This document shows, piece by piece, positions 860-15,372 of a stretch of 32,000 nucleotides of DNA. The stretch lies in assembly GCA_030606485.1 (NCBI GenBank), contig JAUWGH010000005.1, forward strand, positions 300,001-332,000. Reading direction: 5' to 3'. Position numbers and translations under genes: made by a program. This DNA comes from Promethearchaeota archaeon. GTDB taxonomy: Archaea; Asgardarchaeota; Lokiarchaeia; Sigyniarchaeales; SOKP01. Position 1 is the first letter of the stretch. Every line of letters begins with the position of its first letter. Below the pieces are notes generated by a model. It was not told the origin of the DNA and made no database searches. It worked only from the letters and a program-made list of their open reading frames with translations.

Positions 860-1450
860 ATGAAAGATCTTCGGCTCCCTCTAAATCAACGTAGAAGATT
901 CACACAACCCTTAGGTAAATTAATATCGGGAAGACGGGAGGATACAATTGCAGAGGTTGTTTCATTTTTTAAGCAAGAGAGGGAGTTAAATGAAGGATTG
1001 GATTATAAGATTTATTGTGTAGGGGATATTGTCACTCAAGATTTTTTGGAAAATGCATATTTGAGGGAAATGATAAAGATTTGTATTATTGATGAAAAGA
1101 CTAAAAGACAAAGAATTGATACCCCTTTCAAGGAATTTTTTGAGCAGATAATTGAATTAAAAAATCCCACGGGAACAATTTCTAAGGATATGTGGTCAAA
1201 ATTAAAGGAGTTAATCGAAAATAATCGAAGAGTATTAGTAAAAATTGTTGATGGAGAAGAGGATTTATTAGTAATCCCATTAATTTCCGGATTTTCACTT
1301 TCTGAAAGTATTAAATCCTATGTTTTTTATGGACAACCTCCTGTTACAGATTCCGAAAAACCTATTCCTGAAGGTCTGGTTATGCTTGAGGTGACTAAAC
1401 AAATTCAGAGAATAGTAACTGAGCTTACCAAGCTAATGGAAAAATATTAA
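860..1450 (+). CDS. GTP-dependent dephospho-CoA kinase (DUF359 family)
   Basis: Motifs VGDIVT, IIDEKTKR, NPTGTIS, VDGEEDLL and YGQP; canonical position between spt4 and rps24e. Confidence 0.9.
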   Translation: MKDLRLPLNQRRRFTQPLGKLISGRREDTIAEVVSFFKQERELNEGLDYKIYCVGDIVTQDFLENAYLREMIKICIIDEKTKRQRIDTPFKEFFEQIIELKNPTGTISKDMWSKLKELIENNRRVLVKIVDGEEDLLVIPLISGFSLSESIKSYVFYGQPPVTDSEKPIPEGLVMLEVTKQIQRIVTELTKLMEKY

Positions 1451-4748: not shown

Positions 4749-5819
4749 TTGAAAGTAATTGGAATAGACCCTGGGAGTAAAAGCTGGGATTTTTTTGGTT
4801 TAGATAATAATTCAATTTTTTTAGATACTTCAATATTAACTAAAAATTTAATGGAAGACCCAGATAAATTTTTTGAAGTAATAGATGGAGTAAAACCTTT
4901 CGATTTAATGGTCGCTCCAAGTGGATTTGGCCTACCATTAAAAAAGGTTCAAGATTTAACAGAAATGGATATGTTTCAGATCTTATTAAAGTTTAAACGA
5001 GATAAAGAAAAAAAAATAGTAGGATTAGGAGAGATTTTAAGAAGAATCAAGGTTGAAAATTATCCAAGTGTAATTGTCCCAAGCGTTAAACATTTACCAA
5101 CAGTGCCAACATATAAAAAAGTCAATAAAATAGATCTGGGAACGGCTGATAAAGTCTGCACGGCTGTTGTTGGTATTCGGGATCAAATTGAGAGTTATAA
5201 TATCACAGCAGAAAAAACAAATTTTATTCTTATTGAAATCGGATTTGGTTTTACAGCTGTTTTAGCTATTGAAAATGGACAAATTATTGATGGCATTGGT
5301 GGTTCAAATATCATGGGAATACATGCTTGTGGAAGTGTTGATGGAGAATTAGCTTATCTAATTGGGGAAATCAAAAAAAAGCATTATTATCAAGGCGGTG
5401 TAGCTTCAATTGCTGGCTATGCGAATTTAAGTCTTCAAGAAGTTGTTCAGTTAGCTAAAAAGGATGCTCAATCCAAATTAGCGATAAACGCATTTATGGA
5501 TAGTATTAAAAAAGCAACCTTTGCAATAACTTCTGCATTTTCTGATAAGAATAAGATTAAAGATATCTTATTAGCGGGAAGAGGGATTGATTTAGAGGTT
5601 ATTAAAGATGATCTTAAAAATACTTTGCACAAGATTGCAAATGTAAGAGAAATGAAAACCTATAGTCAGATTGCTAAGCGTTCAGCTCAAGGTGCAGCAT
5701 TTATTGCGGATGGCCTTCTTGGCGGAAAATTTAAACCAATAATTGACAATTTAAAATTAAAAGATTCATCAGGCTCTGTTTTGGATCATATCTATATACC
5801 ATATGAAAGAAAGGCATAA
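4749..5819 (+). CDS. DUF1464 family ASKHA (actin-like ATPase/kinase fold) protein
   Basis: N-terminal GIDPGSKSWD phosphate-1-like motif, APSGFGLP, NKIDLGTADK, EIGFGFT and C-terminal SAQGAAFIADGLLGG. TTG start. Confidence 0.75.
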   Translation: MKVIGIDPGSKSWDFFGLDNNSIFLDTSILTKNLMEDPDKFFEVIDGVKPFDLMVAPSGFGLPLKKVQDLTEMDMFQILLKFKRDKEKKIVGLGEILRRIKVENYPSVIVPSVKHLPTVPTYKKVNKIDLGTADKVCTAVVGIRDQIESYNITAEKTNFILIEIGFGFTAVLAIENGQIIDGIGGSNIMGIHACGSVDGELAYLIGEIKKKHYYQGGVASIAGYANLSLQEVVQLAKKDAQSKLAINAFMDSIKKATFAITSAFSDKNKIKDILLAGRGIDLEVIKDDLKNTLHKIANVREMKTYSQIAKRSAQGAAFIADGLLGGKFKPIIDNLKLKDSSGSVLDHIYIPYERKA

Positions 5820-5824
5820 AAGCC

Positions 5825-6391
5825 ATGGATAAGGAGAAAAGAAGTAAAATTATATGGGGAATAACAGGTTCTGGCTATTTAATTAAAGAATCAATTGATT
5901 TAATGAAGGAACTACAAAAAAAATATTCAATCGATTTTACGGTAATACTCTCGACTCAAGGAGTAGTGGTTGCAAAGTGGTATCGCCAATGGTTATATTT
6001 AAAAGAAACCATTCAAAAAGTTCAAGTTGAGAAAACTCCAAATAATCCATTTCTTGCGGGACCTCTACAGACCGGTGAATATAAAATGTTAATTGTGTGC
6101 CCTTTAAGTGCTAATTCAGCAGCAAAGATTGCTTATGGTATAGCTGACACGCTTATAACGAATTGCGTTGCACAAACAATTAAAGGTGGTGTTCCAGTTT
6201 ATTTAAATCCTTCTGACCAAGAAGATAAACCAATTGAGACTTATAGACCAAGTGGAGAAAAACTTATATTAAAGATTCGAGAAGTCGAGTTAGAAAACAT
6301 TGAAAGATTAAAAAAGATGGATGGAATTACACTTTTTTCTGATTTGAATGAAATAAAAAGAATAATTCTTGCACAAATAGAAAGTGATTAA
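5825..6391 (+). CDS. afpA: Archaeoflavoprotein AfpA family (HFCD-like FMN flavoprotein; candidate dihydromethanopterin reductase)
   Basis: WGITGSG, PFLAGPLQTGEY, PLSANSAAKIAYGIADTLITN and PSDQ. No CxxC ferredoxin insert. Confidence 0.8.
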   Translation: MDKEKRSKIIWGITGSGYLIKESIDLMKELQKKYSIDFTVILSTQGVVVAKWYRQWLYLKETIQKVQVEKTPNNPFLAGPLQTGEYKMLIVCPLSANSAAKIAYGIADTLITNCVAQTIKGGVPVYLNPSDQEDKPIETYRPSGEKLILKIREVELENIERLKKMDGITLFSDLNEIKRIILAQIESD

Positions 6392-7964
6392 TATAAACAT
6401 TTTAATAATTACTGGAATACAAAGTCTTCAAACTGCACAAAGAATTGCAAATGAAACAAAGAATCATTTTATAGATGTTCTTAAAGCTCCTATCTCCGTA
6501 TCTGCATTTTTAACCGAAGATTTAACAAACCAACTTCTTTTAGAAGAAAAATTAAATCAATATGATATTGTTCTTTTACCAGGTTTTATTCAATGGGATG
6601 CAAGTAATTTAGAAAAAAAATTTTCAATTCCTATTCGTAAAGGTCCGAGATTTTTATCAGATTTACACTCAATCTTAAAAAAAGTAGAAGATTTAAATCT
6701 ATCTAATACAATTCCTGCTTGTGATTTGTTAAAATTTTCAGGTGAAGATCAATATGAAGAAATAGTAAAAAATAGAATAGAATTTGCTCGAAAATCGATC
6801 TCTACTCATACTTTTATCATTAATGATAAATTTCCTGATAAAATTATCGGAAGAGACTTACCTCCTTTAATTATTGCCGAGATTATAAATGCACCACAAA
6901 AGAATTTTAAGCAATTAGATAGAAAAATAGAGCATTATATTTCTTCAGGAGCTGATGTGATTGATCTCGGGTGCACATCGAATAAACCGAATCCTTCAAG
7001 ACTTCAAGAAATTATTGAGTACATTAAAAGCAAATACAATATTCTATTAAGTGCAGATACTCTAAATTCAGAAGAAATTAACGCTGCTATTGATGTAGAT
7101 ATCGACTTAATATTGAGTTTAGATTATGGAAATTATGAGAATCACTTAGATGCACCTAAAAAGCTGCCTTTTGTAATTCTTCCAACTGATACAACAAAGG
7201 CAATAATGCCAAAGATACCAGAAGTTAGAATTGAACGTTTATTTGCTTTAACAGAAATTTTAAAGAAGAAAGGATTTCAAAAACTCATTTTGGATCCTCT
7301 TTTAGAAACACCAATTAATCCGGGATTTATAAACTCTATTAGTGCATATTCGTTATATAATAAGAAAGTTAAAGAAGAGAAATATAAAGAATTAGAATTT
7401 CCCTTATTTTTTGGAATTTCTAATGTTGTTGAGTTAATGGATATAGATTCTATAGGAATTAACGGGCTTTTAGCATGTATTGCCGCAGAGCTTGATATTG
7501 GTGTAATTTTTACGGTTGAACATAGTGCAAAATTATTTAACGGAGTTAATGAATTGAAGAAGGGAATTAAATTAGCATATTTATCTAAATATAAAAAAAT
7601 GCCTCCTATTAATCAAGGAATACAAATTTTTAGTGCAAAAAGTAAAAATAAAGTTGAGTTGCCACAAATAAATAGAAATCAAGCAGTAATATTAAAAGAT
7701 TCAGATGATTACTATCAACCTGATTCGAATGGTTATTTTAAAATTTATACAAACCAATATACAAATGAAATATACGTGCTTCATATTTCAAATGGTCATA
7801 ATCTTTTAAATACAATAGTTGGCAAGAATGCTGAAGATATAAGTAAAAAAATCATAAAGTTAAATCTCACTGCTGATAAATTTCATATTAATTATTTAGG
7901 GCGAGAGTTGAAGAAAGCAGAAATTTGCTTAAAATCAGGTAAATATTATATCCAAGATGAGTAA
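6384..7964 (+). CDS. Archaeal dihydropteroate synthase-related protein (pterin-binding barrel plus C-terminal DUF4346-like domain)
   Basis: IPIRKGP, IIAEI, GADVIDLG, LSADT, ILDPLL, LFFGISNVVELMDIDSIGIN and C-terminal PDSNGYFKI...HINYLGRELKKAEICL. Overlaps afpA by 8 nt. Confidence 0.85.
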   Translation: MININILIITGIQSLQTAQRIANETKNHFIDVLKAPISVSAFLTEDLTNQLLLEEKLNQYDIVLLPGFIQWDASNLEKKFSIPIRKGPRFLSDLHSILKKVEDLNLSNTIPACDLLKFSGEDQYEEIVKNRIEFARKSISTHTFIINDKFPDKIIGRDLPPLIIAEIINAPQKNFKQLDRKIEHYISSGADVIDLGCTSNKPNPSRLQEIIEYIKSKYNILLSADTLNSEEINAAIDVDIDLILSLDYGNYENHLDAPKKLPFVILPTDTTKAIMPKIPEVRIERLFALTEILKKKGFQKLILDPLLETPINPGFINSISAYSLYNKKVKEEKYKELEFPLFFGISNVVELMDIDSIGINGLLACIAAELDIGVIFTVEHSAKLFNGVNELKKGIKLAYLSKYKKMPPINQGIQIFSAKSKNKVELPQINRNQAVILKDSDDYYQPDSNGYFKIYTNQYTNEIYVLHISNGHNLLNTIVGKNAEDISKKIIKLNLTADKFHINYLGRELKKAEICLKSGKYYIQDE

Positions 7965-8146
7965 TTCGTTATTTTTTTTATATGGGAAAAACTCTTCATA
8001 CTCCAATTTTCTTTTGCTTAGTTAAATTAAGGAATATTAAAATTAAACAAAGTGTTTTATTGCTGATACCTAAATCTAATTTTATATTTAAATTTTCTCA
8101 GAAAAATCTGATAAATTATACATTCAAGACAATTAATCGAAAGAAA

Positions 8147-9271
8147 TCAATAATATTTTATTATATTATAAACAGTATCTCTTTGAGCTGGACGTTTTCC
8201 AGCGGATTTAATTATATTGATGATTTCCTCAGGTTTTAAATATTCACCATAATGGGCTCCTGCGCTTCTAGAAATATTTTCTTCCAATAACGTTCCAGAA
8301 AAATCATTTACACCATAATTTAATGAAATTTGAGCAAATCTTGGCCCCAGTTTAACCCAAGAACATTGAATATTATCAATATTATTATTTAAAAATATTC
8401 TTGCAACACAAAACAACTTTAAATCGTCCATACCATAAGTTGGTTTTAACGGATATTGCCTAATTTTTGAAAGCATTGGATTTTCTTTAACATATGGCAA
8501 AAGAACAAATTCTGTTATTCCACTAGTCTCTTTTTGAATGTTTCTTATTATTTCTAAATGTATCATTCTATCTTCTAAGCTTTCTATATGACCATACATT
8601 ATTGTAGATGTTGTTGGAATTTCTAATTTATGTGCGGTAGAAATAATTTCAATCCATTGCTCTGTGGTTATTTTTTTAGGGCATATAATTTTTCTTATTT
8701 CATCATTTAATATTTCTGCTGCAGTCCCTGGTATTGAGTCCAAACCAGCTTTTTTTAATTCTTTCAGCGTATCTTCGAGAGTTAAACCATTTAATTGTGT
8801 CATATAAAAAATTTCTTGTGGTGAAAAAGCATGTGCATGAATCTCAGGGGCGGTACTTTTTACCACTTTTAAAATATCTAAATAAAATTGAAAGTCAACT
8901 TTTGGATTTAACCCTCCTTGAATGCATACTTCTGTACAATTTTTATCTTTTGCTTCAAGAATTTTTTCTTTAATTTCTTCAAGTGATAATAGATAAGCTT
9001 CTTTATGATTTTTTGATACATTAAATGAACAGAATTTACAGCTACTAGTACATATATTTGTGAAATTAATGTTCCGGTTAATTACGAAAGTTACAATATT
9101 TTCTTTTTTCAGAGAACATAGATAATTTGCAACTAATTGTAGCGCTAAAAAATCATTTCCGGAACATTTTAATAACTCTAGTCCTTCAATCTTGGTTATT
9201 TCCTTGGAATTTAATGCTTTATCGAGAATCCTTTCAATTTTTGAATTAGATAATTGGTTTAACTCTACCAT
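8147..9271 (-). CDS. cofH: FO synthase subunit CofH (radical SAM)
   Basis: NRNINFTNICTSSCKFCSF (CxxxCxxC), EVCIQGG, SIPGTAAEIL, NIQCSWVKLG and EENISRSAG; adjacent to cofG. Confidence 0.9.
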   Translation of the reverse strand: MVELNQLSNSKIERILDKALNSKEITKIEGLELLKCSGNDFLALQLVANYLCSLKKENIVTFVINRNINFTNICTSSCKFCSFNVSKNHKEAYLLSLEEIKEKILEAKDKNCTEVCIQGGLNPKVDFQFYLDILKVVKSTAPEIHAHAFSPQEIFYMTQLNGLTLEDTLKELKKAGLDSIPGTAAEILNDEIRKIICPKKITTEQWIEIISTAHKLEIPTTSTIMYGHIESLEDRMIHLEIIRNIQKETSGITEFVLLPYVKENPMLSKIRQYPLKPTYGMDDLKLFCVARIFLNNNIDNIQCSWVKLGPRFAQISLNYGVNDFSGTLLEENISRSAGAHYGEYLKPEEIINIIKSAGKRPAQRDTVYNIIKYY

Positions 9272-9285
9272 GATTGAATTGATAA

Positions 9286-10392
9286 TTATGAGATATTATT
9301 ACAATAAAACTCCATCACATTATTAATTTGTGAGGACATGAAATTTTTTTTTCTAATAAATTTATCATAGATTGGTAGTCTCTCTTTCAACTCGAACCCT
9401 TCAGCTTTACAAATCTTTTTTAAATGTTCAATTTCTGGCCATGTTTTATAAGGATTTATTTCGTCTCTTGTAAATGGAGAAATACCTCCAAAATCATCTA
9501 TTCCAACTTTTAAAAATTGTTTTTCATAACCAGTAATTAAGTTTGGTGGAATCTGAATTTTTATCGAATTCTCTACTATGATTTTGGCAATTCCAGCTGT
9601 CTTGATAATATTTCCTATTGCAATTGGTGTTTTAGGATTATATCTTATATTCGGTTTTGAGATAAAATTTTGTATTATTATTTCTTGGATGTGTTCATAT
9701 TCATCATTCAATTCCTTTATAAGAAATAAATCCTTTATCCGATCAATCATACTTTCCCCTATACCTAAAAGTAAACCAGTTGTAAAAGGTATTCTTAATT
9801 TCCCGGCATTTTTAATAAATTCAATCCTTTTATCTGGTCTTTTACCGGGACTTTCTTCATGAACATTACCTTTTTTAAATAACCTAGGTTGGGAACTTTC
9901 AAGCATAAGGCCCATACTCGCGTTATAATCTTTTATTTGTTCTAATTTATCATAACTAAGATATCCTACATTCGTGTGGGGTAAAAATTCTTTAGATAAT
10001 AATAATTTGCAAATATATAACAGATAATCGAAAAATTGTTTAAATCCTCTGGATTTTAATCTTTTTTTAACTATTTGGAATTGATCTGGATGTTCTCCAG
10101 ACATTATTAAAGCTTCCTTACAATTAAGTTGATGTGCTTTGGCCATTAACTTTTTAATTTTTTTTAAATCAAACAGTGTAATAATTTCATTTTGAGTTTT
10201 CATTCTATGATTGAAGTAGCAATAAGAGCAATTATTTATGCAATAATTTGATAATGGGATGGTGAAATTTTTTGAAAATGTTATAATATCTCTTTCATCA
10301 TGTGGCAACTCATTTTTAATTTCTCTTACTTTTTTTCTTATTTCTCTTAGAGATAATTTTGCTAATCCATTTATTGCCTCTATAAAATTCAC
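9286..10392 (-). CDS. cofG: FO synthase subunit CofG (radical SAM)
   Basis: TFSKNFTIPLSNYCINNCSYC, KEALIMSGE, PHTNVG, SMGLMLES, SPGK, IPFTTGLLLGIGE, IQIPPNL, DDFGGISP and ERLPIY. Confidence 0.92.
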   Translation of the reverse strand: MNFIEAINGLAKLSLREIRKKVREIKNELPHDERDIITFSKNFTIPLSNYCINNCSYCYFNHRMKTQNEIITLFDLKKIKKLMAKAHQLNCKEALIMSGEHPDQFQIVKKRLKSRGFKQFFDYLLYICKLLLSKEFLPHTNVGYLSYDKLEQIKDYNASMGLMLESSQPRLFKKGNVHEESPGKRPDKRIEFIKNAGKLRIPFTTGLLLGIGESMIDRIKDLFLIKELNDEYEHIQEIIIQNFISKPNIRYNPKTPIAIGNIIKTAGIAKIIVENSIKIQIPPNLITGYEKQFLKVGIDDFGGISPFTRDEINPYKTWPEIEHLKKICKAEGFELKERLPIYDKFIRKKNFMSSQINNVMEFYCNNIS

Positions 10393-10394
10393 AC

Positions 10395-11054
10395 CTACGC
10401 TTTTAAATAATGAAGTACTACATAATTATCTCTTTTCAAAACGTTTTGCAGGTTGAATTTAAAACCTTCAACTATTCGCTTTACTCCTAGACCATCAACG
10501 AGTGAAACAGCGTTTTTCCCTCCAACTATTATAGGAGCAATGAAAATTCTAATCTCGTCAACTAAACAATTTTTTATCATACTCCAATTGAGAGATCCTC
10601 CTCCTTCGAGTAAAATTTTTTTAATCCCATGCTTGTATAATTCTTCCATTAATTTTTTTAAATTAACCTGTTTTCCAGAACCTGTGTTGATAAATCTAAT
10701 ATTTCTCAGTTTAGCCTTTTCCATTTTTGGTTTTAGAGCATGATCTGTTATTGCGATTATTGTGGGATAAGTCTCTAGTTTATAACTTAATACTTTTGAA
10801 GTTAAAGGAATAGAAAAGGAACTATCAACAATAACCCGAATTAATTTTGTTGGTTCGTAAAATTTTATGTGTAATTTTGGATCATCTTTTAAGATCGTAT
10901 TTTTTCCAACCATTATTGCATCATATTCGGTCCTAAGTTTATGAACTAGTTTCCAATCCTCTCCATCAGAAAATTCAGTATCACCAGTATATGTGGCAAT
11001 TTTTCCATCAATACTCATAGCACAACTCAATAAAACATATGGTTTATTTTTCAA
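10395..11054 (-). CDS. arfC: 2,5-diamino-6-(ribosylamino)-4(3H)-pyrimidinone 5'-phosphate reductase (stand-alone RibD C-terminal domain)
   Basis: KPYVLLSCAMSIDGKIAT, LRTEYDAIMVGKNTILKDDPKL, LLEGGGSLN, VDEIRIFIAPIIVGG. At 219 aa it has no N-terminal deaminase domain. Confidence 0.9.
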   Translation of the reverse strand: MKNKPYVLLSCAMSIDGKIATYTGDTEFSDGEDWKLVHKLRTEYDAIMVGKNTILKDDPKLHIKFYEPTKLIRVIVDSSFSIPLTSKVLSYKLETYPTIIAITDHALKPKMEKAKLRNIRFINTGSGKQVNLKKLMEELYKHGIKKILLEGGGSLNWSMIKNCLVDEIRIFIAPIIVGGKNAVSLVDGLGVKRIVEGFKFNLQNVLKRDNYVVLHYLKA

Positions 11055-12192
11055 AAACTACTCTCCCTTTAATATATACTTTCTTAATATTAAAACTAGT
11101 CGTTCTATGAACAGTTAAATCTAATAAATTTTTATGGTTTATTGTAAAGAAGTTTGAATCCTTAAGATTTATTAAAAAAAAATCAGCAAATTTTCCTACT
11201 GAAATTGATCCTATCTCTTTATCTAATCTAAAATTTTTTGCAGCGTTAATAGTTACCATTTTTAGTAAATCTCTCGATTTTAAGACGTAATTAGGATTCC
11301 TTATTTTTGAAACCTTATATAAATATCTCATTTCTTCAAATAAGTCTGGTCTAATTGCCATTATATTATCAGTACCAATAGAAATTTCTAATTTCATATC
11401 TAACATTTCTTTTAATGGAGGTATTCCCATCCCAAAATAACCATTACTTTGAGGGCAAATAACAATTTTTTTATTATGTTTTTTTATTTTTAATAAGTCT
11501 TGTTTATTAAAATGTGTCCCATGAATGAATACATCAATAAAATCTTCAGATAAAATGTTTTCGAGTATAATATTCTCCCTTTTAACCTCAGATATATGAG
11601 TTGCAATAATTTTATTAGTATGTGGTTTTTTATTTAAAATATTTTTAATGGTATCTCCATCAATTTTTGAACTTGATGGAAAACCAATACCATCTGCGAT
11701 GTTATAAATATCAAATACATCATCATTTTCATGCTGTCGACCTAATATCTTGAATTTAATTGGGGAATCTTTTAATGCCTTTTTTAATAATTTAATGCCT
11801 TTAATTCCAAATTCTCGAAAATCGATAAAAAATGTTATTCCATTAGATAACATTTCATTAACTGCTTCTCTAATACCTTTAATTATAAAATTTTCATCAG
11901 TATCTCTTAATAATTTGTATTTTAGACTATTAGGACCACTTACAACATCTTTAATTGGTTTATTTAAACCAAATTCTTTCCCAATACTGTCTGCAATATG
12001 AATATGACTGTTTATAAAGCCAGGAAGTAAAATTGTCTTACCTTTTCCTAAAGGATTTTTATTATTGATTTTCTCTGATTCATTAATTCCTTTAATTATG
12101 CCATTTTTTGATATTTCGATAATAACATTCTTTTTTAAATCTAAATCTTCACCAACTAAACAAAAATCAGAAAATATCTTTTTACTTACCAT
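11044..12192 (-). CDS. Amidohydrolase-superfamily metal-dependent deaminase-like protein
   Basis: LLPGFINSHIHIAD (HxH), ATHISE (HxxE), IHGTH, IGTDN and GSISVGKFADF. Its stop overlaps the arfC start by 11 nt. Confidence 0.85.
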   Translation of the reverse strand: MVSKKIFSDFCLVGEDLDLKKNVIIEISKNGIIKGINESEKINNKNPLGKGKTILLPGFINSHIHIADSIGKEFGLNKPIKDVVSGPNSLKYKLLRDTDENFIIKGIREAVNEMLSNGITFFIDFREFGIKGIKLLKKALKDSPIKFKILGRQHENDDVFDIYNIADGIGFPSSSKIDGDTIKNILNKKPHTNKIIATHISEVKRENIILENILSEDFIDVFIHGTHFNKQDLLKIKKHNKKIVICPQSNGYFGMGIPPLKEMLDMKLEISIGTDNIMAIRPDLFEEMRYLYKVSKIRNPNYVLKSRDLLKMVTINAAKNFRLDKEIGSISVGKFADFFLINLKDSNFFTINHKNLLDLTVHRTTSFNIKKVYIKGRVVFEK

Positions 12193-12251
12193 ATTTAATG
12201 TTATTAAATTATTTTTAATTATAAATATTTAAAAGGAAAATAAAAAATTAA

Positions 12252-13226
12252 GTGATAATTATTTCTAATGAATTTCGAAAAGATTTACAAGATTCCTATT
12301 CTCCTTTAGACGTAGCTATTGATAAAGTTGGTATAATTGGACTCAGAAAAAAAATAGATATAGTAAAAGGCAATTACAAATACTCATTCTACCCAAAGAT
12401 ATCAGCTTTAATTAGTCTCCCGGCAAAACAGAGAGGTATTCATATGAGTAGAACTTCTGAAACAATTGAAGAAGTAATTAATGAAGTTATTTTTAAGCCC
12501 ACTCCAACTATAGAAGTAGTCGCTGATCGGATTATAAAAAAATTATTAAAAAAGCATAAATACACTTTAAAAGTTCATGTGGAGCTTGAGGGCGATATTG
12601 TTATTCAAGTAAGAGAGACTGAGAAAAATAATGTCCAAAAATCTTATTATATAAAAACTGTAGCTAATGGAATAAAACAAGATAATGGAGAAGTTAGGTA
12701 TAAATATTTCATTGGAGTTAGCGCGGTTGGTCTTAATGTATGTCCCTGTAGTATGGAGATGAGTAGAGAATTTGTAGAAGATTTTATTAAAGCAAGAAGA
12801 GATATTAAGATTTCAGAAATTGATTTAAAAAAGTTACTGAACATTCTTCCTGTTTCATCACACAATCAAAGAGCGAAAGGAACAATTACGGTTGAGATTG
12901 ATGATGTAGATATAAACTCTATAGATATAATTGATTTGATAAATATAATTGAAAACTCTATGAGTGGTAAGATAAGTTCTGTCTTAAAACGACCTGAAGA
13001 AGCGGAATTGGTTCGAGTCGCTCATCTTAAACCTTTGTTTGCAGAAGATGCCGTAAGAGAAATGGCTAAAAATTTTATTAAAAAAGATTTTATAAATTTA
13101 AAGGATAAGTTTAGTGTAAAATTTGAAATTACTAGTTTTGAAAGCATTCACTCCTATGATGTTTTTGCTGAACTGAATACAACAATAGGAGAATTAAAAA
13201 AAATCATTAAAGATATAAAAAATTAG
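12252..13226 (+). CDS. mptA: GTP cyclohydrolase MptA (FolE2/GCYH-IB family)
   Basis: RGIHMSR, VCPC, SHNQRA, SVLKRPEE...FAEDAVR and ESIHSYD. GTG start. Confidence 0.9.
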   Translation: MIIISNEFRKDLQDSYSPLDVAIDKVGIIGLRKKIDIVKGNYKYSFYPKISALISLPAKQRGIHMSRTSETIEEVINEVIFKPTPTIEVVADRIIKKLLKKHKYTLKVHVELEGDIVIQVRETEKNNVQKSYYIKTVANGIKQDNGEVRYKYFIGVSAVGLNVCPCSMEMSREFVEDFIKARRDIKISEIDLKKLLNILPVSSHNQRAKGTITVEIDDVDINSIDIIDLINIIENSMSGKISSVLKRPEEAELVRVAHLKPLFAEDAVREMAKNFIKKDFINLKDKFSVKFEITSFESIHSYDVFAELNTTIGELKKIIKDIKN

Positions 13227-13259: not shown

Positions 13260-14210
13260 TTATTTAAATTCATAAAAATATCTACCATGCTTCTCTTTAA
13301 ATGCTTCTGCTACTTCATCAATTTCGGGTTGGATGAATTCATACCCATCTTTTAACGCTTCATATGTAACAGGAATGTTTCCTAATACTTCACCATCTAC
13401 TTGACAAATGAAGGGTTCATCTTCAGGATTTAACATCTCTATTCTAACTTTCTTACTCTCAAACTCATATATATCAGGGCGCGGAATGTGCGAGGCTGAA
13501 TACATCCTTTTGAAATTTCTTAATAGAACTAGTTTACTAAGATTACAAACATTGATATAGAATAGACCATCATTAACCCGAGCCTTTGCACACATATACA
13601 TCCCTCCTCCATAGGATGGACCGTTTCCAACTGCAATAAGGGTAGATTCACCTTCATATTTATCATTATCCATTATAACTTTGATTTCTCTGTTTTTCCA
13701 ACGAATAAGTGTCTTTAACACAGCAATTACATAATTCTTTTTTTTACTTTCATTAGCTCGCCTTGCAGCTTCAGCATCAAATCCCTGACTTCCGATTCCT
13801 ATAAAGTAACGTTTAACTCCCTCATCAGTAATTGCCAAACCGATATCGGATTTTCCAGTATGGCCTTCAGCAATTATTTCACATGCTCTTTTTATATCTG
13901 GTGGGATTCCTATTGCTCCAGGAATATCATTTCCACTTCCCATAGGAATAAATCCGCATAAAGATCCTGTATTAGAAGTAATGACACCGTTGAAGACTTC
14001 ATTACATGTTCCATCACCGCCTGCACCTATAACGCGGTAGCCATCTTTTGCCAATTGTGTAGCCAATTCTATCGCGTGTCCAGCATATTCAGATTCAAAT
14101 AATTTATATGAAACACCTAAATCATCGAGATATCGGCAAGCTTGATCAATATCTGCTTTTGATTTTCCACCCGCGCTAATTGGATTGTAAATTATTCCGT
14201 GGTCTGTCAT
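13260..14210 (-). CDS. Diacylglycerol kinase family (DgkB/YegS-like) lipid kinase
   Basis: IIYNPISAGG, GAGGDGTCNEVFNG, IPMGSGND, GFDA, GNGPSYGGG and VDGE. ATG at 14210 is preferred over the longer ORF start at 14234. Confidence 0.88.
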   Translation of the reverse strand: MTDHGIIYNPISAGGKSKADIDQACRYLDDLGVSYKLFESEYAGHAIELATQLAKDGYRVIGAGGDGTCNEVFNGVITSNTGSLCGFIPMGSGNDIPGAIGIPPDIKRACEIIAEGHTGKSDIGLAITDEGVKRYFIGIGSQGFDAEAARRANESKKKNYVIAVLKTLIRWKNREIKVIMDNDKYEGESTLIAVGNGPSYGGGMYMCAKARVNDGLFYINVCNLSKLVLLRNFKRMYSASHIPRPDIYEFESKKVRIEMLNPEDEPFICQVDGEVLGNIPVTYEALKDGYEFIQPEIDEVAEAFKEKHGRYFYEFK

Positions 14211-14322
14211 TTTTATCACTTTTTTATTTATCAATAATAAAAAAAAAATCTTAACAAATCATTTATTTATTAAATATGAGATTAAGCTATATAATAGTTT
14301 TATTCAAGTGGTGTAAGTTAAT

Positions 14323-15372
14323 ATGACATCTATTGCTATTGAAGGGGATTTCATTGAAACTAAAAAAAAGGGTTTGATCTTTGATGTTAAAGGGTTGCTT
14401 CATCCTAAAGATAAAATTATTTGCTTTTTGAGATATTATCCCGATTCAAATGGAGATAGAATAAGAAATGATACAAGATATTCAAAAATTTATGATTTAG
14501 AACAGAGATATGAATTTTTGAGAAAAAATTATCCTGATTTCATTTTTTATTCTAATCAAACAGATATGGAATTACAAGGAGTAAACATTAAAGAAATTAA
14601 ACAGATTTACAAACCTAAAAATTGCTATAAGAACTTAAAAAAAGCTGATAATTTATCGCAGAATCAACAAAAAGCTCTCAATTTTTGTGATATACTCATA
14701 AATAATACACAAATAACTAATGATAACATTGGCATCACTGGTTCCATTATGGTTGGGCTAGATGGGGAGAATTCCGATATAGATGTGGTTATATATGAAA
14801 CTGATATCAGTAAAAGGATACAAGAAGAATTGAAAAAAATTTATTTAAATGAAAAGATTCCAGTTCGAAAATATAACTTAGAAGAATTCAAAAAGCATTA
14901 CGAATTTAGAGCGGGCAGTTCTGGCATTTCTTTTGAAAATTTTATGAGAAGCGAAAAGCATAAATTACACCAAGGTAAATTTCAAGAAACTGATTTCTTT
15001 ATTAGATACATTAAGAGTCCTCAAGATTGGCCGGGAAAATTTTCTGATTACCTTTATAAAAATTATGGCAGAATAAAACTCAAAGCTGAAATTTTGGATT
15101 CTTCTGATTCAATTTTTACACCTTGTTCCTATAAAATTAAGCCTTTAAGATTATTAGAATTGGTACCCTTTTCGAATGAAATTGAATTAAGCCAAATTCA
15201 TGAAATATGTTCATTTAGAGGTCGCTTTTGTGAGCAAGCTATAGATCAAGAGAAGGTATATATAGAGGGAAAACTCGAGAAAGTATTATCTAAGAAGAAA
15301 AATGAATATTTTCGAATCATTTTAGGTGAATATAAGGAAGATAAAATGATGTATTGCAATAACACAAATTAA
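14323..15372 (+). CDS. Predicted archaeal nucleotidyltransferase (pol-beta superfamily, COG1665-like)
   Basis: GITGSIMVGLDGENSDIDVVIY (GS-x10-DxD) signature, N-terminal IFDVKGLLHP...FLRY and C-terminal SFRGRFCEQ. Confidence 0.75.
   Translation: MTSIAIEGDFIETKKKGLIFDVKGLLHPKDKIICFLRYYPDSNGDRIRNDTRYSKIYDLEQRYEFLRKNYPDFIFYSNQTDMELQGVNIKEIKQIYKPKNCYKNLKKADNLSQNQQKALNFCDILINNTQITNDNIGITGSIMVGLDGENSDIDVVIYETDISKRIQEELKKIYLNEKIPVRKYNLEEFKKHYEFRAGSSGISFENFMRSEKHKLHQGKFQETDFFIRYIKSPQDWPGKFSDYLYKNYGRIKLKAEILDSSDSIFTPCSYKIKPLRLLELVPFSNEIELSQIHEICSFRGRFCEQAIDQEKVYIEGKLEKVLSKKKNEYFRIILGEYKEDKMMYCNNTN

Follow-up and report, generated by a model that had tools for sequence, protein, structure and literature searches.

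Pterin and deazaflavin cofactor genes around a single mptA in an Asgard archaeon: a probable family-specific juxtaposition of two conserved modules

The capacity of Asgard archaea for the cofactors F420 and tetrahydromethanopterin (H4MPT) has already been published: the full set of F420 genes is on record for Loki-, Heimdall- and Helarchaeota, and the phosphoenolpyruvate (PEP)/dehydro-F420 route may be the one used in Lokiarchaeota (PMC8498797). On the pterin side, DmrB was described as a dihydromethanopterin reductase (PMC6193120). For the ribityl pyrimidine precursor that is shared by riboflavin and the F420 chromophore FO, archaea are without the RibD deaminase domain, and a candidate deaminase, ‘PyrD’ (MJ0699, HVO_2483), was proposed from gene clustering and co-occurrence with the remark that it ‘remains to be tested’ (PMC5397151, PMC8305020); the prediction is credited to Osterman, Overbeek and Rodionov (2010), as cited in PMC5397151. 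Orthologues of the formamide hydrolase ArfB are not universal, Haloferax volcanii having a candidate only (PMC8305020), and known formamidases of the ArfB and BrbF types are creatininase-family enzymes and not members of the amidohydrolase superfamily (PMC9478397). Here, we analyze a 32,000-nucleotide stretch of archaeal DNA, called the window in the following, in which genes for both cofactors stand side by side in an island of eight genes at positions 4749-13226. This island is probably composed of two independently conserved cofactor modules, one for methanopterin-type pterins and one for FO, which are juxtaposed around a single mptA gene in an arrangement specific to the family of the source organism.

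The window comprises positions 300001-332000 of contig C5 in a source genome of 3.75 Mb, which is distributed over 13 contigs and has a completeness estimate of 100%; the G+C content is about 28%. Elsewhere in the window, a Ras-family GTPase, a 740-aa leucine-rich repeat (LRR) protein and archaeal ribosomal proteins are encoded. Homologues of the island's amidohydrolase at about 50% identity are found in metagenome-assembled genomes (MAGs) named Promethearchaeota, Lokiarchaeota, Thor-, Hermod- and Hodarchaeota and in the original Lokiarchaeum metagenome. The nearest homologues, the Ras-family GTPase and the LRR protein support an Asgard archaeon as the source, as an earlier note made from the sequence alone had supposed. 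Gene identities were judged by the curated cut-offs of Pfam and NCBIfam. The island was compared across a survey of 121 genomes of the Asgard phylum, in which families are labelled f1, f2 and so on; f1 is the family of the source genome, its genera are labelled g1-g4, and g1 consists of the source genome and G040. A wider survey, a profile scan of 185,579 species genomes for the amidohydrolase, yielded 80 loci, with Methanocaldococcus jannaschii not among them. The genomes of M. jannaschii, Methanosarcina acetivorans, H. volcanii and Sulfolobus acidocaldarius were used as controls. The island contains the following features:

4749-5819, + strand: DUF1464 protein, first gene of the pterin unit (PF07318 over residues 5-348, 302 bits against a threshold of 23.5)
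5825-6391, + strand: AfpA/DmrB-like FMN flavoprotein (TIGR02699, 193.6 bits against a cut-off of 192.45)
6384-7964, + strand: three-domain protein resembling dihydropteroate synthase (DHPS-like; TIGR00284, 273.1 against 256.65)
8147-9271, - strand: CofH, radical-SAM subunit of FO synthase, last gene of the FO operon (NF005609, 462.7 against 426)
9286-10392, - strand: CofG, radical-SAM subunit of FO synthase (NF004884, 393.6 against 209)
10395-11054, - strand: ArfC, 2,5-diamino-6-ribosylamino-4(3H)-pyrimidinone 5'-phosphate reductase (TIGR01508, 189.3 against 186.45)
11044-12192, - strand: deaminase-type amidohydrolase, first gene of the FO operon (PF01979; NF005552/PRK07213 with 257 bits, under the cut-off of 294)
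12193-12251, no strand: divergent, AT-rich intergenic region of 59 bp between the FO operon and mptA, presumed to be a bidirectional promoter region
12252-13226, + strand: MptA-type Fe(II) GTP cyclohydrolase of the GCYH-IB family (TIGR00294, 235 against 220; PF02649, 195 bits)

These eight back-to-back genes on two strands are the ones that the earlier note had counted, and all of its gene identities were confirmed by open reading frames (ORFs), Pfam and NCBIfam. The spacings are 5 and -8 nt within the + strand unit and -11, 2 and 14 nt within the - strand unit (in the order amidohydrolase-ArfC-CofG-CofH). Since the genes within a unit overlap or lie at most 14 nt apart, its proposal of three transcription units fits, the operon boundaries being inferred. 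The two flanking units, i.e., the DUF1464 unit and the FO operon, converge and have no common promoter. A scan with a sigma-70-type promoter and terminator model, which does not cover archaeal promoters, returned fewer sites than in shuffled sequence. The sole other ORF of at least 80 aa (7982-8239, 85 aa) matches no family and runs into the 3' end of cofH, and it was not counted as a gene.

The evidence for two modules comes from the relatives. MptA lies beside amidohydrolase-ArfC-CofG, with CofH, in four of five same-family stretches (L018, L019, L021, L022), the fifth (L020) having ended before MptA. The same neighbourhood of MptA and amidohydrolase-ArfC-CofG recurs in all 15 further related loci (L046-L060), in 12 of which CofH follows and in three of which the contig ends first. 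In most related loci mptA is divergent from the amidohydrolase gene; in L058 and L059 it is co-directional and directly upstream. The DUF1464 and DHPS-like genes are found within 10 kb of cofG on one contig in 11 of 16 f1 genomes, the other five being split at contig ends. The proteins of the FO operon are 45-56% identical across genera, and by its recurrence in relatives the arrangement exceeds chance. The tight eight-gene form exists only in genus g1. In g2 and g4, the cluster has no AfpA, and cofH and the DHPS-like gene have an unrelated gene for a 620-aa Glu/Leu/Phe/Val-dehydrogenase-CBS protein between them (L022:8719-10581, with counterparts in L019 and L020). None of the other Asgard families examined has the two modules together; in the Freyarchaeia genome G038, for example, a single chromosome carries them at 0.85 Mb, 1.10 Mb and 2.26 Mb. 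Conservation of the cluster among relatives, as the earlier note expected it, holds within f1, and in the other families examined it gives way to two separate modules. The island is a lineage-specific arrangement of genes whose functions are ordinary or already predicted.

The first module, 4749-7964 together with mptA, would serve methanopterin-type pterin synthesis. In this route MptA would open GTP to dihydroneopterin cyclic phosphate as the entry into the pterin branch, and an MptB-like protein, MptD and MptE, encoded elsewhere, would lead on to 6-hydroxymethyl-dihydropterin diphosphate. The DHPS-like protein would then couple the pterin diphosphate to the arylamine from RFAP synthase, the AfpA/DmrB-like flavoprotein would reduce the dihydropterin, and DUF1464 would phosphorylate some intermediate of the pterin pathway in an ATP-dependent manner. 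A search of the genome beyond the window, which the earlier note had proposed, found MptG next to MptD, and also MptE and an MptB-like HD protein under its cut-off (159.7 against 172.35). MptA is encoded by a single-copy gene, and the FolE2 model NF010200 matches it less well than TIGR00294 (132 against 215). Residues 7-181 of the AfpA-like protein match PDB 3wis/4mwg (‘putative dihydromethanopterin reductase (AfpA)’, E 1.8e-17), which makes it a candidate dihydromethanopterin reductase. No DmrX-type protein was found in the genome, the best TIGR02700 match being the AfpA-like gene itself at about 86-98 bits against 251 over model positions 1-142 of 234, and this gene encodes the only DmrX/DmrB homologue in the genome. 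The DHPS-like protein consists of DUF6513, a pterin-binding barrel and DUF4346 (matches to PF00809, PF14251 and PF20123). With these domains, and with its gene directly after MptE in f12 and before MptD-MptE in f13, it is the probable pterin-coupling enzyme of the pathway. Compared with the methanopterin genes of methanogens and methylotrophs, the lineage has MptA, MptG, MptD, MptE, an MptB-like protein and an AfpA-like protein similar to AfpA/DmrB, with the genes in one operon in sister families. It differs in the missing DmrX, in a three-domain TIGR00284 protein as the coupling candidate, and in DUF1464 as an additional gene that is absent from both methanogen controls.

The association of DUF1464 with this pathway is carried by other Asgard families. 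DUF1464 occurs in 50 of the 121 Asgard genomes and the DHPS-like gene in 55, including every family with DUF1464 and also f7 (1/17) and f10; both genes are present in f1, f2, f4, f8, f9, f12, f13, f18 and f19. In six of these (f8, f9, f12, f13, f18 and f19), DUF1464 is part of operons with RFAP synthase, DUF447, MptA, MptD, MptE or the DHPS-like gene. The order in f8 and f19 is RFAP-synthase-like GHMP kinase, DUF1464, AfpA-like, DHPS-like, MptA and two nucleotidyltransferase paralogues, and f9 has this order with DUF447 first. The run in f18 also begins with DUF447 and is without AfpA or MptA, the run in f12 reads ATP-grasp, DUF1464, MptG, DUF447, MptA, MptE, DHPS-like, and f13 has DHPS-like, MptD, MptE and MptA with DUF1464 nearby. 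Since DUF1464 stands among bona fide methanopterin genes in six further families, it is tied to methanopterin synthesis. Its invariant motifs GIDPGS, DxGTADK and GIGG correspond to the phosphate and adenosine motifs of the ASKHA superfamily, and its AlphaFold2 (AF2) model (pLDDT 83.6) has the ASKHA, i.e., actin-like ATPase, fold. The best PDB matches are butyrate kinase 2 (1saz, E 2.6e-13, TM 0.62) and acetate kinases. The model superposes on butyrate and acetate kinases (1saz, 1g99) with a TM of about 0.6 and E values of 1e-12 to 1e-15, and the ASKHA motifs are conserved. In contrast, identity is 9-17% among the top ten matches, the context is cofactor synthesis and not fermentation, and no Pfam match to the acetate/butyrate kinase family PF00871 was obtained, so that the likeness is at the level of the fold. 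By fold, motifs and context, DUF1464 is a candidate ATP-dependent phosphotransferase of methanopterin synthesis. A role as an HgdC-type activase was considered and rejected, since there is only one invariant Cys and no cluster motif. The full-text literature returned nothing relevant on DUF1464 and nothing on MJ0107.

The second module, the - strand operon from 12192 to 8147, would be dedicated to FO. In the proposed sequence of steps, ArfC would reduce 2,5-diamino-6-ribosylamino-pyrimidinone 5'-phosphate to the ribityl form, and the amidohydrolase would strip off the 2-amino group by metal-dependent hydrolytic deamination, similar to guanine and cytosine deaminases, to give 5-amino-6-ribitylamino-uracil phosphate. 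Following dephosphorylation, CofH and CofG would condense the uracil product with tyrosine to FO, and FO would be extended to F420 by proteins encoded elsewhere in the genome, namely CofD, CofE, a CofC-like protein and an FbiB-C-terminal-like reductase. The amidohydrolase is very probably a member of the predicted PyrD family (MJ0699 type), its orthology to MJ0699 resting on the NF005552 model, the gene context and the literature and not on a direct alignment with MJ0699. It is the sole strong match to NF005552 in the genome, and the next family scores 107 bits. Residues H63, H65, H199-x-x-E202, H224 and D275 are invariant in ten diverged homologues at 29-48% identity, and this HxH/HxxE/H/D set is the pattern of guanine-/cytosine-deaminase-type amidohydrolases, by motif pattern and not by structural superposition; HxxE marks the deaminase branch of the amidohydrolase superfamily. 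Among solved proteins, those closest to the island's enzyme are atrazine chlorohydrolase, guanine deaminase and TM0936, which are of this same type. The partner ArfC, a protein of 219 aa with PF01872 over residues 5-213, consists of the reductase domain only, without a deaminase domain.

In the Asgard survey, the amidohydrolase was found in 46 genomes, ArfC in 51 and CofG in 42. ArfC is present in 45 of the 46 amidohydrolase genomes, and the amidohydrolase is absent from 69 of the 70 genomes that are devoid of ArfC. Both genes are adjacent on the same strand in seven Asgard families (f1, f4, f5, f8, f15, f19, f22), and ArfA is located directly upstream in f4, f8, f15 and f19, resulting in the order ArfA-amidohydrolase-ArfC. 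Archaea-wide, ArfC is next after the amidohydrolase in 57 of the 80 loci (Asgard, Nitrososphaerota, Bathyarchaeia and a Thermoproteota MAG), including dozens of ammonia-oxidizing archaea. In the other 23, from methanogens, Hadesarchaea and others, the amidohydrolase is away from ArfC, CofG and CofH, which supports the view of the earlier note that these genes are scattered in methanogens. Its attribution of two unknown genes by association also held, for the amidohydrolase through ArfC and for DUF1464 through the methanopterin genes. In the RibA-using family f5 the amidohydrolase is present in 9/9 genomes and RibA in 8/9; since RibA needs no deformylase, this equal conservation argues for a deaminase and against a deformylase. 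The locus shares with PyrD (MJ0699/HVO_2483) and ArfC (MJ0671) the clustering and co-occurrence with archaeal riboflavin genes, the ArfC adjacency, NF005552 as the best NCBIfam match (albeit under its cut-off) and the deaminase residues. It differs in that the amidohydrolase heads an FO-dedicated operon, in a genome in which no riboflavin synthase, lumazine synthase, DHBP synthase, ArfA or RibA was found. The deaminase candidate is a rediscovery of the published prediction, which was proposed from exactly such clustering, and no later assay of the archaeal pyrimidine deaminase candidate was found in the literature.

The FO synthase subunits are assigned with larger margins. CofH also matches TIGR03551 (453.1 against 374.1), with the MqnC and MqnE models under their cut-offs, and CofG also matches TIGR03550 (364 against 213); the CxxxCxxC motif is located at residue 51 of CofG and residue 74 of CofH. 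CofG-CofH are appended to amidohydrolase-ArfC in f1 and f5, the only families of the Asgard survey with this arrangement, and in the Heimdall locus L071 and the Bathyarchaeia locus L080; on the f19 Freyarchaeia chromosome CP147778, cofG lies 1.4 Mb away. Outside the window, the source genome encodes CofD (314.6 bits) and CofE (263.8 bits), both over their cut-offs, and a CofC-like protein with a weak match (74 bits against a cut-off of 105). The row cofE, FbiB-C-terminal-like nitroreductase (207 aa, under cut-off) and cofD at C2:310146-312531 (L135) hints at the PEP/dehydro-F420 route proposed for Lokiarchaeota. This row is preceded by the lipoate genes LipS2, LplA and LipS1. The equivalog scores, the radical-SAM Cys motifs and the remaining F420 pathway genes, including the FbiB-C-terminal-like reductase, are shared with the FO synthase of methanogens and the published Asgard F420 gene sets. 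The difference is that CofG and CofH here share an operon with two predicted pyrimidine-tailoring enzymes, whereas the amidohydrolase stands apart in the 23 loci mentioned above.

Mch, Ftr and Mtd are also present in the genome, and these genes support methanopterin-type C1 chemistry and the use of F420 (by Mtd) as predicted capacities of the organism. The earlier note had named the absence of downstream cof genes and of all H4MPT- and F420-dependent enzymes as an argument against its own proposal, and CofD, CofE, Mch, Ftr and Mtd were all found. Its claim of de novo FO and F420 synthesis stands as far as CofG, CofH, CofD and CofE are concerned, the CofC-like match being weak, and lacks a recognizable first step, as no GTP cyclohydrolase II or III was found. 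Its Wood-Ljungdahl-type C1 pathway with H4MPT remains a supposition, of which Ftr, Mch and Mtd were found. There was no Mer over the cut-off, the best match being an LLM-class oxidoreductase at 149.5 against 348.7, and Fwd and CODH/ACS were not searched for.

The missing first step is the most useful new point of the analysis. ArfC needs a ring-opened pyrimidine made from GTP, either via ArfA and ArfB or via RibA. In the source genome, no match to GTP cyclohydrolase III (ArfA, PF05165) or II (RibA, PF00925) was obtained, and tblastn with queries from genus g3 of the same family did not reveal RibB, RibC, RibH or ArfA (best E >0.1). Within f1, ArfA is restricted to g3 (3/3) and RibA is found in none of 15 genomes. 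Genus g3 carries a five-gene ribB-ribC-ribH-arfA-arfB operon (L140:6510-9629) without counterpart in the source genome, and the riboflavin route is lost or gained patchily within the family. Thus, the organism looks like a riboflavin auxotroph, as judged from its gene content, and yet keeps an intact and conserved operon for the FO precursor. As ArfC and the amidohydrolase are both kept, the substrate enters upstream of them and some enzyme that opens the GTP ring must exist. Apart from MptA, no GTP cyclohydrolase was detected in the genome, FolE (PF01227) not having been searched for, and mptA fills the slot beside the amidohydrolase gene that ArfA fills in f4, f8, f15 and f19. The only possible formamide hydrolase found in the genome is a creatininase-family protein. 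It has 326 aa, is encoded at G000:C8:397597-398577 (L141:5597-6577, - strand) and is 27% identical to the ArfB of g3. Its neighbourhood was rejected as a cofactor locus: the genes around it encode alcohol dehydrogenases and an enoyl-CoA hydratase, and none is for a cofactor. Genomes of f17 and f23 (e.g., G021, G100 and G084, 73-83% complete) encode the amidohydrolase and ArfC non-adjacently and are without ArfA, RibA and CofG. The neighbours of the f17 genes (sugar nucleotidyltransferase, Sir2, UPF0047, GATase, GNAT and MgtE) offered no candidate for the entry enzyme.

Several observations weigh against reading the island as a pterin module and an FO module with the functions given above. Of the control genomes, only that of S. 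acidocaldarius gave a match to DUF1464, and those of M. jannaschii, M. acetivorans and H. volcanii gave none; being missing from the methanogen controls, DUF1464 is not a universal methanopterin enzyme. The M. jannaschii control has TIGR00284, and this species also has MJ0301, the characterized coupling enzyme, so that the DHPS-like protein may do something else. Moreover, no recognized enzyme supplies the substrate of ArfC, which leaves the FO module without its entry step. The amidohydrolase scores under the NF005552 cut-off, and ArfC and AfpA exceed theirs by 1-3 bits, i.e., marginally. The co-occurrence counts take in related genomes, which are not independent samples, and therefore overstate the support. 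Finally, all activities of the products are predicted, and the archaeal deaminase family was never assayed.

Three other explanations have to be considered alongside the preferred one of two juxtaposed modules. The adjacency itself could be a neutral rearrangement that was inherited in one family while both modules are regulated independently, which we regard as having somewhat less than an even chance. It is compatible with the two-module reading and differs from it only on whether selection maintains the junction. The wide separation of the modules in every other Asgard family examined fits with neutrality, as do the dehydrogenase-CBS gene between them in g2 and g4, where AfpA is absent from the cluster, and the converging flanking units with no common promoter. 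Selection is favoured by the junction of mptA and amidohydrolase, which is kept in the 4 + 15 stretches reaching it although the genera are about 50% apart in protein sequence, and by an intergenic region of only 59 bp. A second alternative concerns the amidohydrolase, which could be a formamide hydrolase substituting for ArfB, or a deaminase of guanine, pterins or nucleosides whose linkage to ArfC is incidental. The slot between ArfA and ArfC in four families would suit a deformylase as well, ArfB orthologues are not universal (PMC8305020), the substrates of the closest solved relatives are triazines, guanine and adenosine derivatives, and the NF005552 score is under its cut-off. However, the gene is equally conserved beside ArfC in RibA-using lineages (f5, 9/9; also f22 and f25), g3 has a creatininase-type ArfB in addition to the amidohydrolase, the known formamidases are of the creatininase family and not of the amidohydrolase superfamily (PMC9478397), and no other deaminase candidate is linked to ArfC. 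Together with the invariant HxxE, taken as the mark of the deaminase branch, this renders any function other than that of PyrD very unlikely.

The last alternative takes the island as one functional unit, in which the single MptA would feed both the pterin and the deazaflavin branch in those Lokiarchaeial genera that are without ArfA, RibA never having been found there, and in which ArfC and the amidohydrolase would draw off the ring-opened formamido- or diaminopyrimidine intermediate of MptA for FO, perhaps after a creatininase-family hydrolase has deformylated it, and the pterin branch would receive the product of the completed reaction. The position of mptA at the head of the FO operon, in a lineage from which ArfA and the riboflavin genes were lost, would thereby be accounted for. 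It is in line with an FO operon that is still intact where no GTP cyclohydrolase II/III, RibB, RibH or RibC was found, with a single-copy mptA that adjoins the amidohydrolase in four same-family stretches and 15/15 further loci and is co-directional and upstream in L058 and L059, with ArfA in the same upstream slot in f4, f8, f15 and f19, and with the existence of the creatininase-family protein. Nevertheless, we know of no precedent for a GCYH-IB/MptA enzyme that releases a riboflavin-pathway intermediate. In genus g3, mptA is arranged in the same way and the full ribB-ribC-ribH-arfA-arfB operon is present as well, so that this arrangement either is older than the loss or has nothing to do with it. 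MptA is clearly part of the pterin operon in other families. The families f17 and f23 are without ArfA and RibA and also without the mptA arrangement, which points to an unrecognized cyclohydrolase elsewhere, and FolE-type enzymes (PF01227) and other candidates were outside the search. Because g3 combines the arrangement with ArfA, f17 and f23 share the gap without it, and FolE-type enzymes were not searched for, a dual role of MptA appears unlikely, albeit less so than a non-PyrD function of the amidohydrolase. The two independently conserved modules thus remain the preferred explanation of the island.

One gene downstream of the island was kept as an uncertain extension of it:

14323-15372, + strand: Pol-beta-type nucleotidyltransferase with a C-terminal OB fold, 349 aa (weak PF01909)

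It has a G-S...SDIDxxxYG motif, an AF2 model with a pLDDT of 92.4 and an OB fold with a Z score of 8.5, and it belongs to an unnamed family. In f8, f9, f18 and f19 it comes after MptA or the DHPS-like gene, usually as a tandem pair of paralogues, and it occurs in 80 of the 121 Asgard genomes with a family-level distribution nearly equal to that of Mch. It was not accepted as an island member, since a lipid kinase gene intervenes, since families lacking DUF1464 or the DHPS-like gene carry it as well, and since the OB fold is suggestive of nucleic acid as the substrate. The intervening gene (13260-14234, - strand) encodes a lipid kinase of the YegS/diacylglycerol-kinase family and is present at this position only in the two g1 genomes among the stretches examined. 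About 3 kb upstream of the island, a DUF359 protein is encoded at 860-1450 (+ strand), which presumably belongs to the family of the archaeal GTP-dependent dephospho-CoA kinase and would hence be one more cofactor gene near the island.

The island agrees with the published metabolic reconstructions in that an FO operon, the F420 tail genes (with a weak CofC-like match) and methanopterin-type pterin genes exist in the lineage. The biological conclusions are not new, as the capacity of Asgard archaea for F420 and H4MPT (PMC8498797) and the deaminase candidate (PMC5397151) were already published. What is added is evidence from gene context for a role of DUF1464 in the methanopterin synthesis of Asgard archaea, and an FO operon that is intact in a genome without recognizable GTP cyclohydrolase II/III or riboflavin genes. 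The locus is of value because it offers clean material for testing two unassayed families and because of the missing entry enzyme; its compact and well conserved operon is suited to tests of the archaeal pyrimidine deaminase, which is still unassayed. Resolving the gap would reveal either a new entry enzyme or a double role for an MptA-type enzyme. On the broader form of the single-cyclohydrolase reading, these archaea would be riboflavin auxotrophs that make F420 via an entry enzyme which is as yet undescribed.

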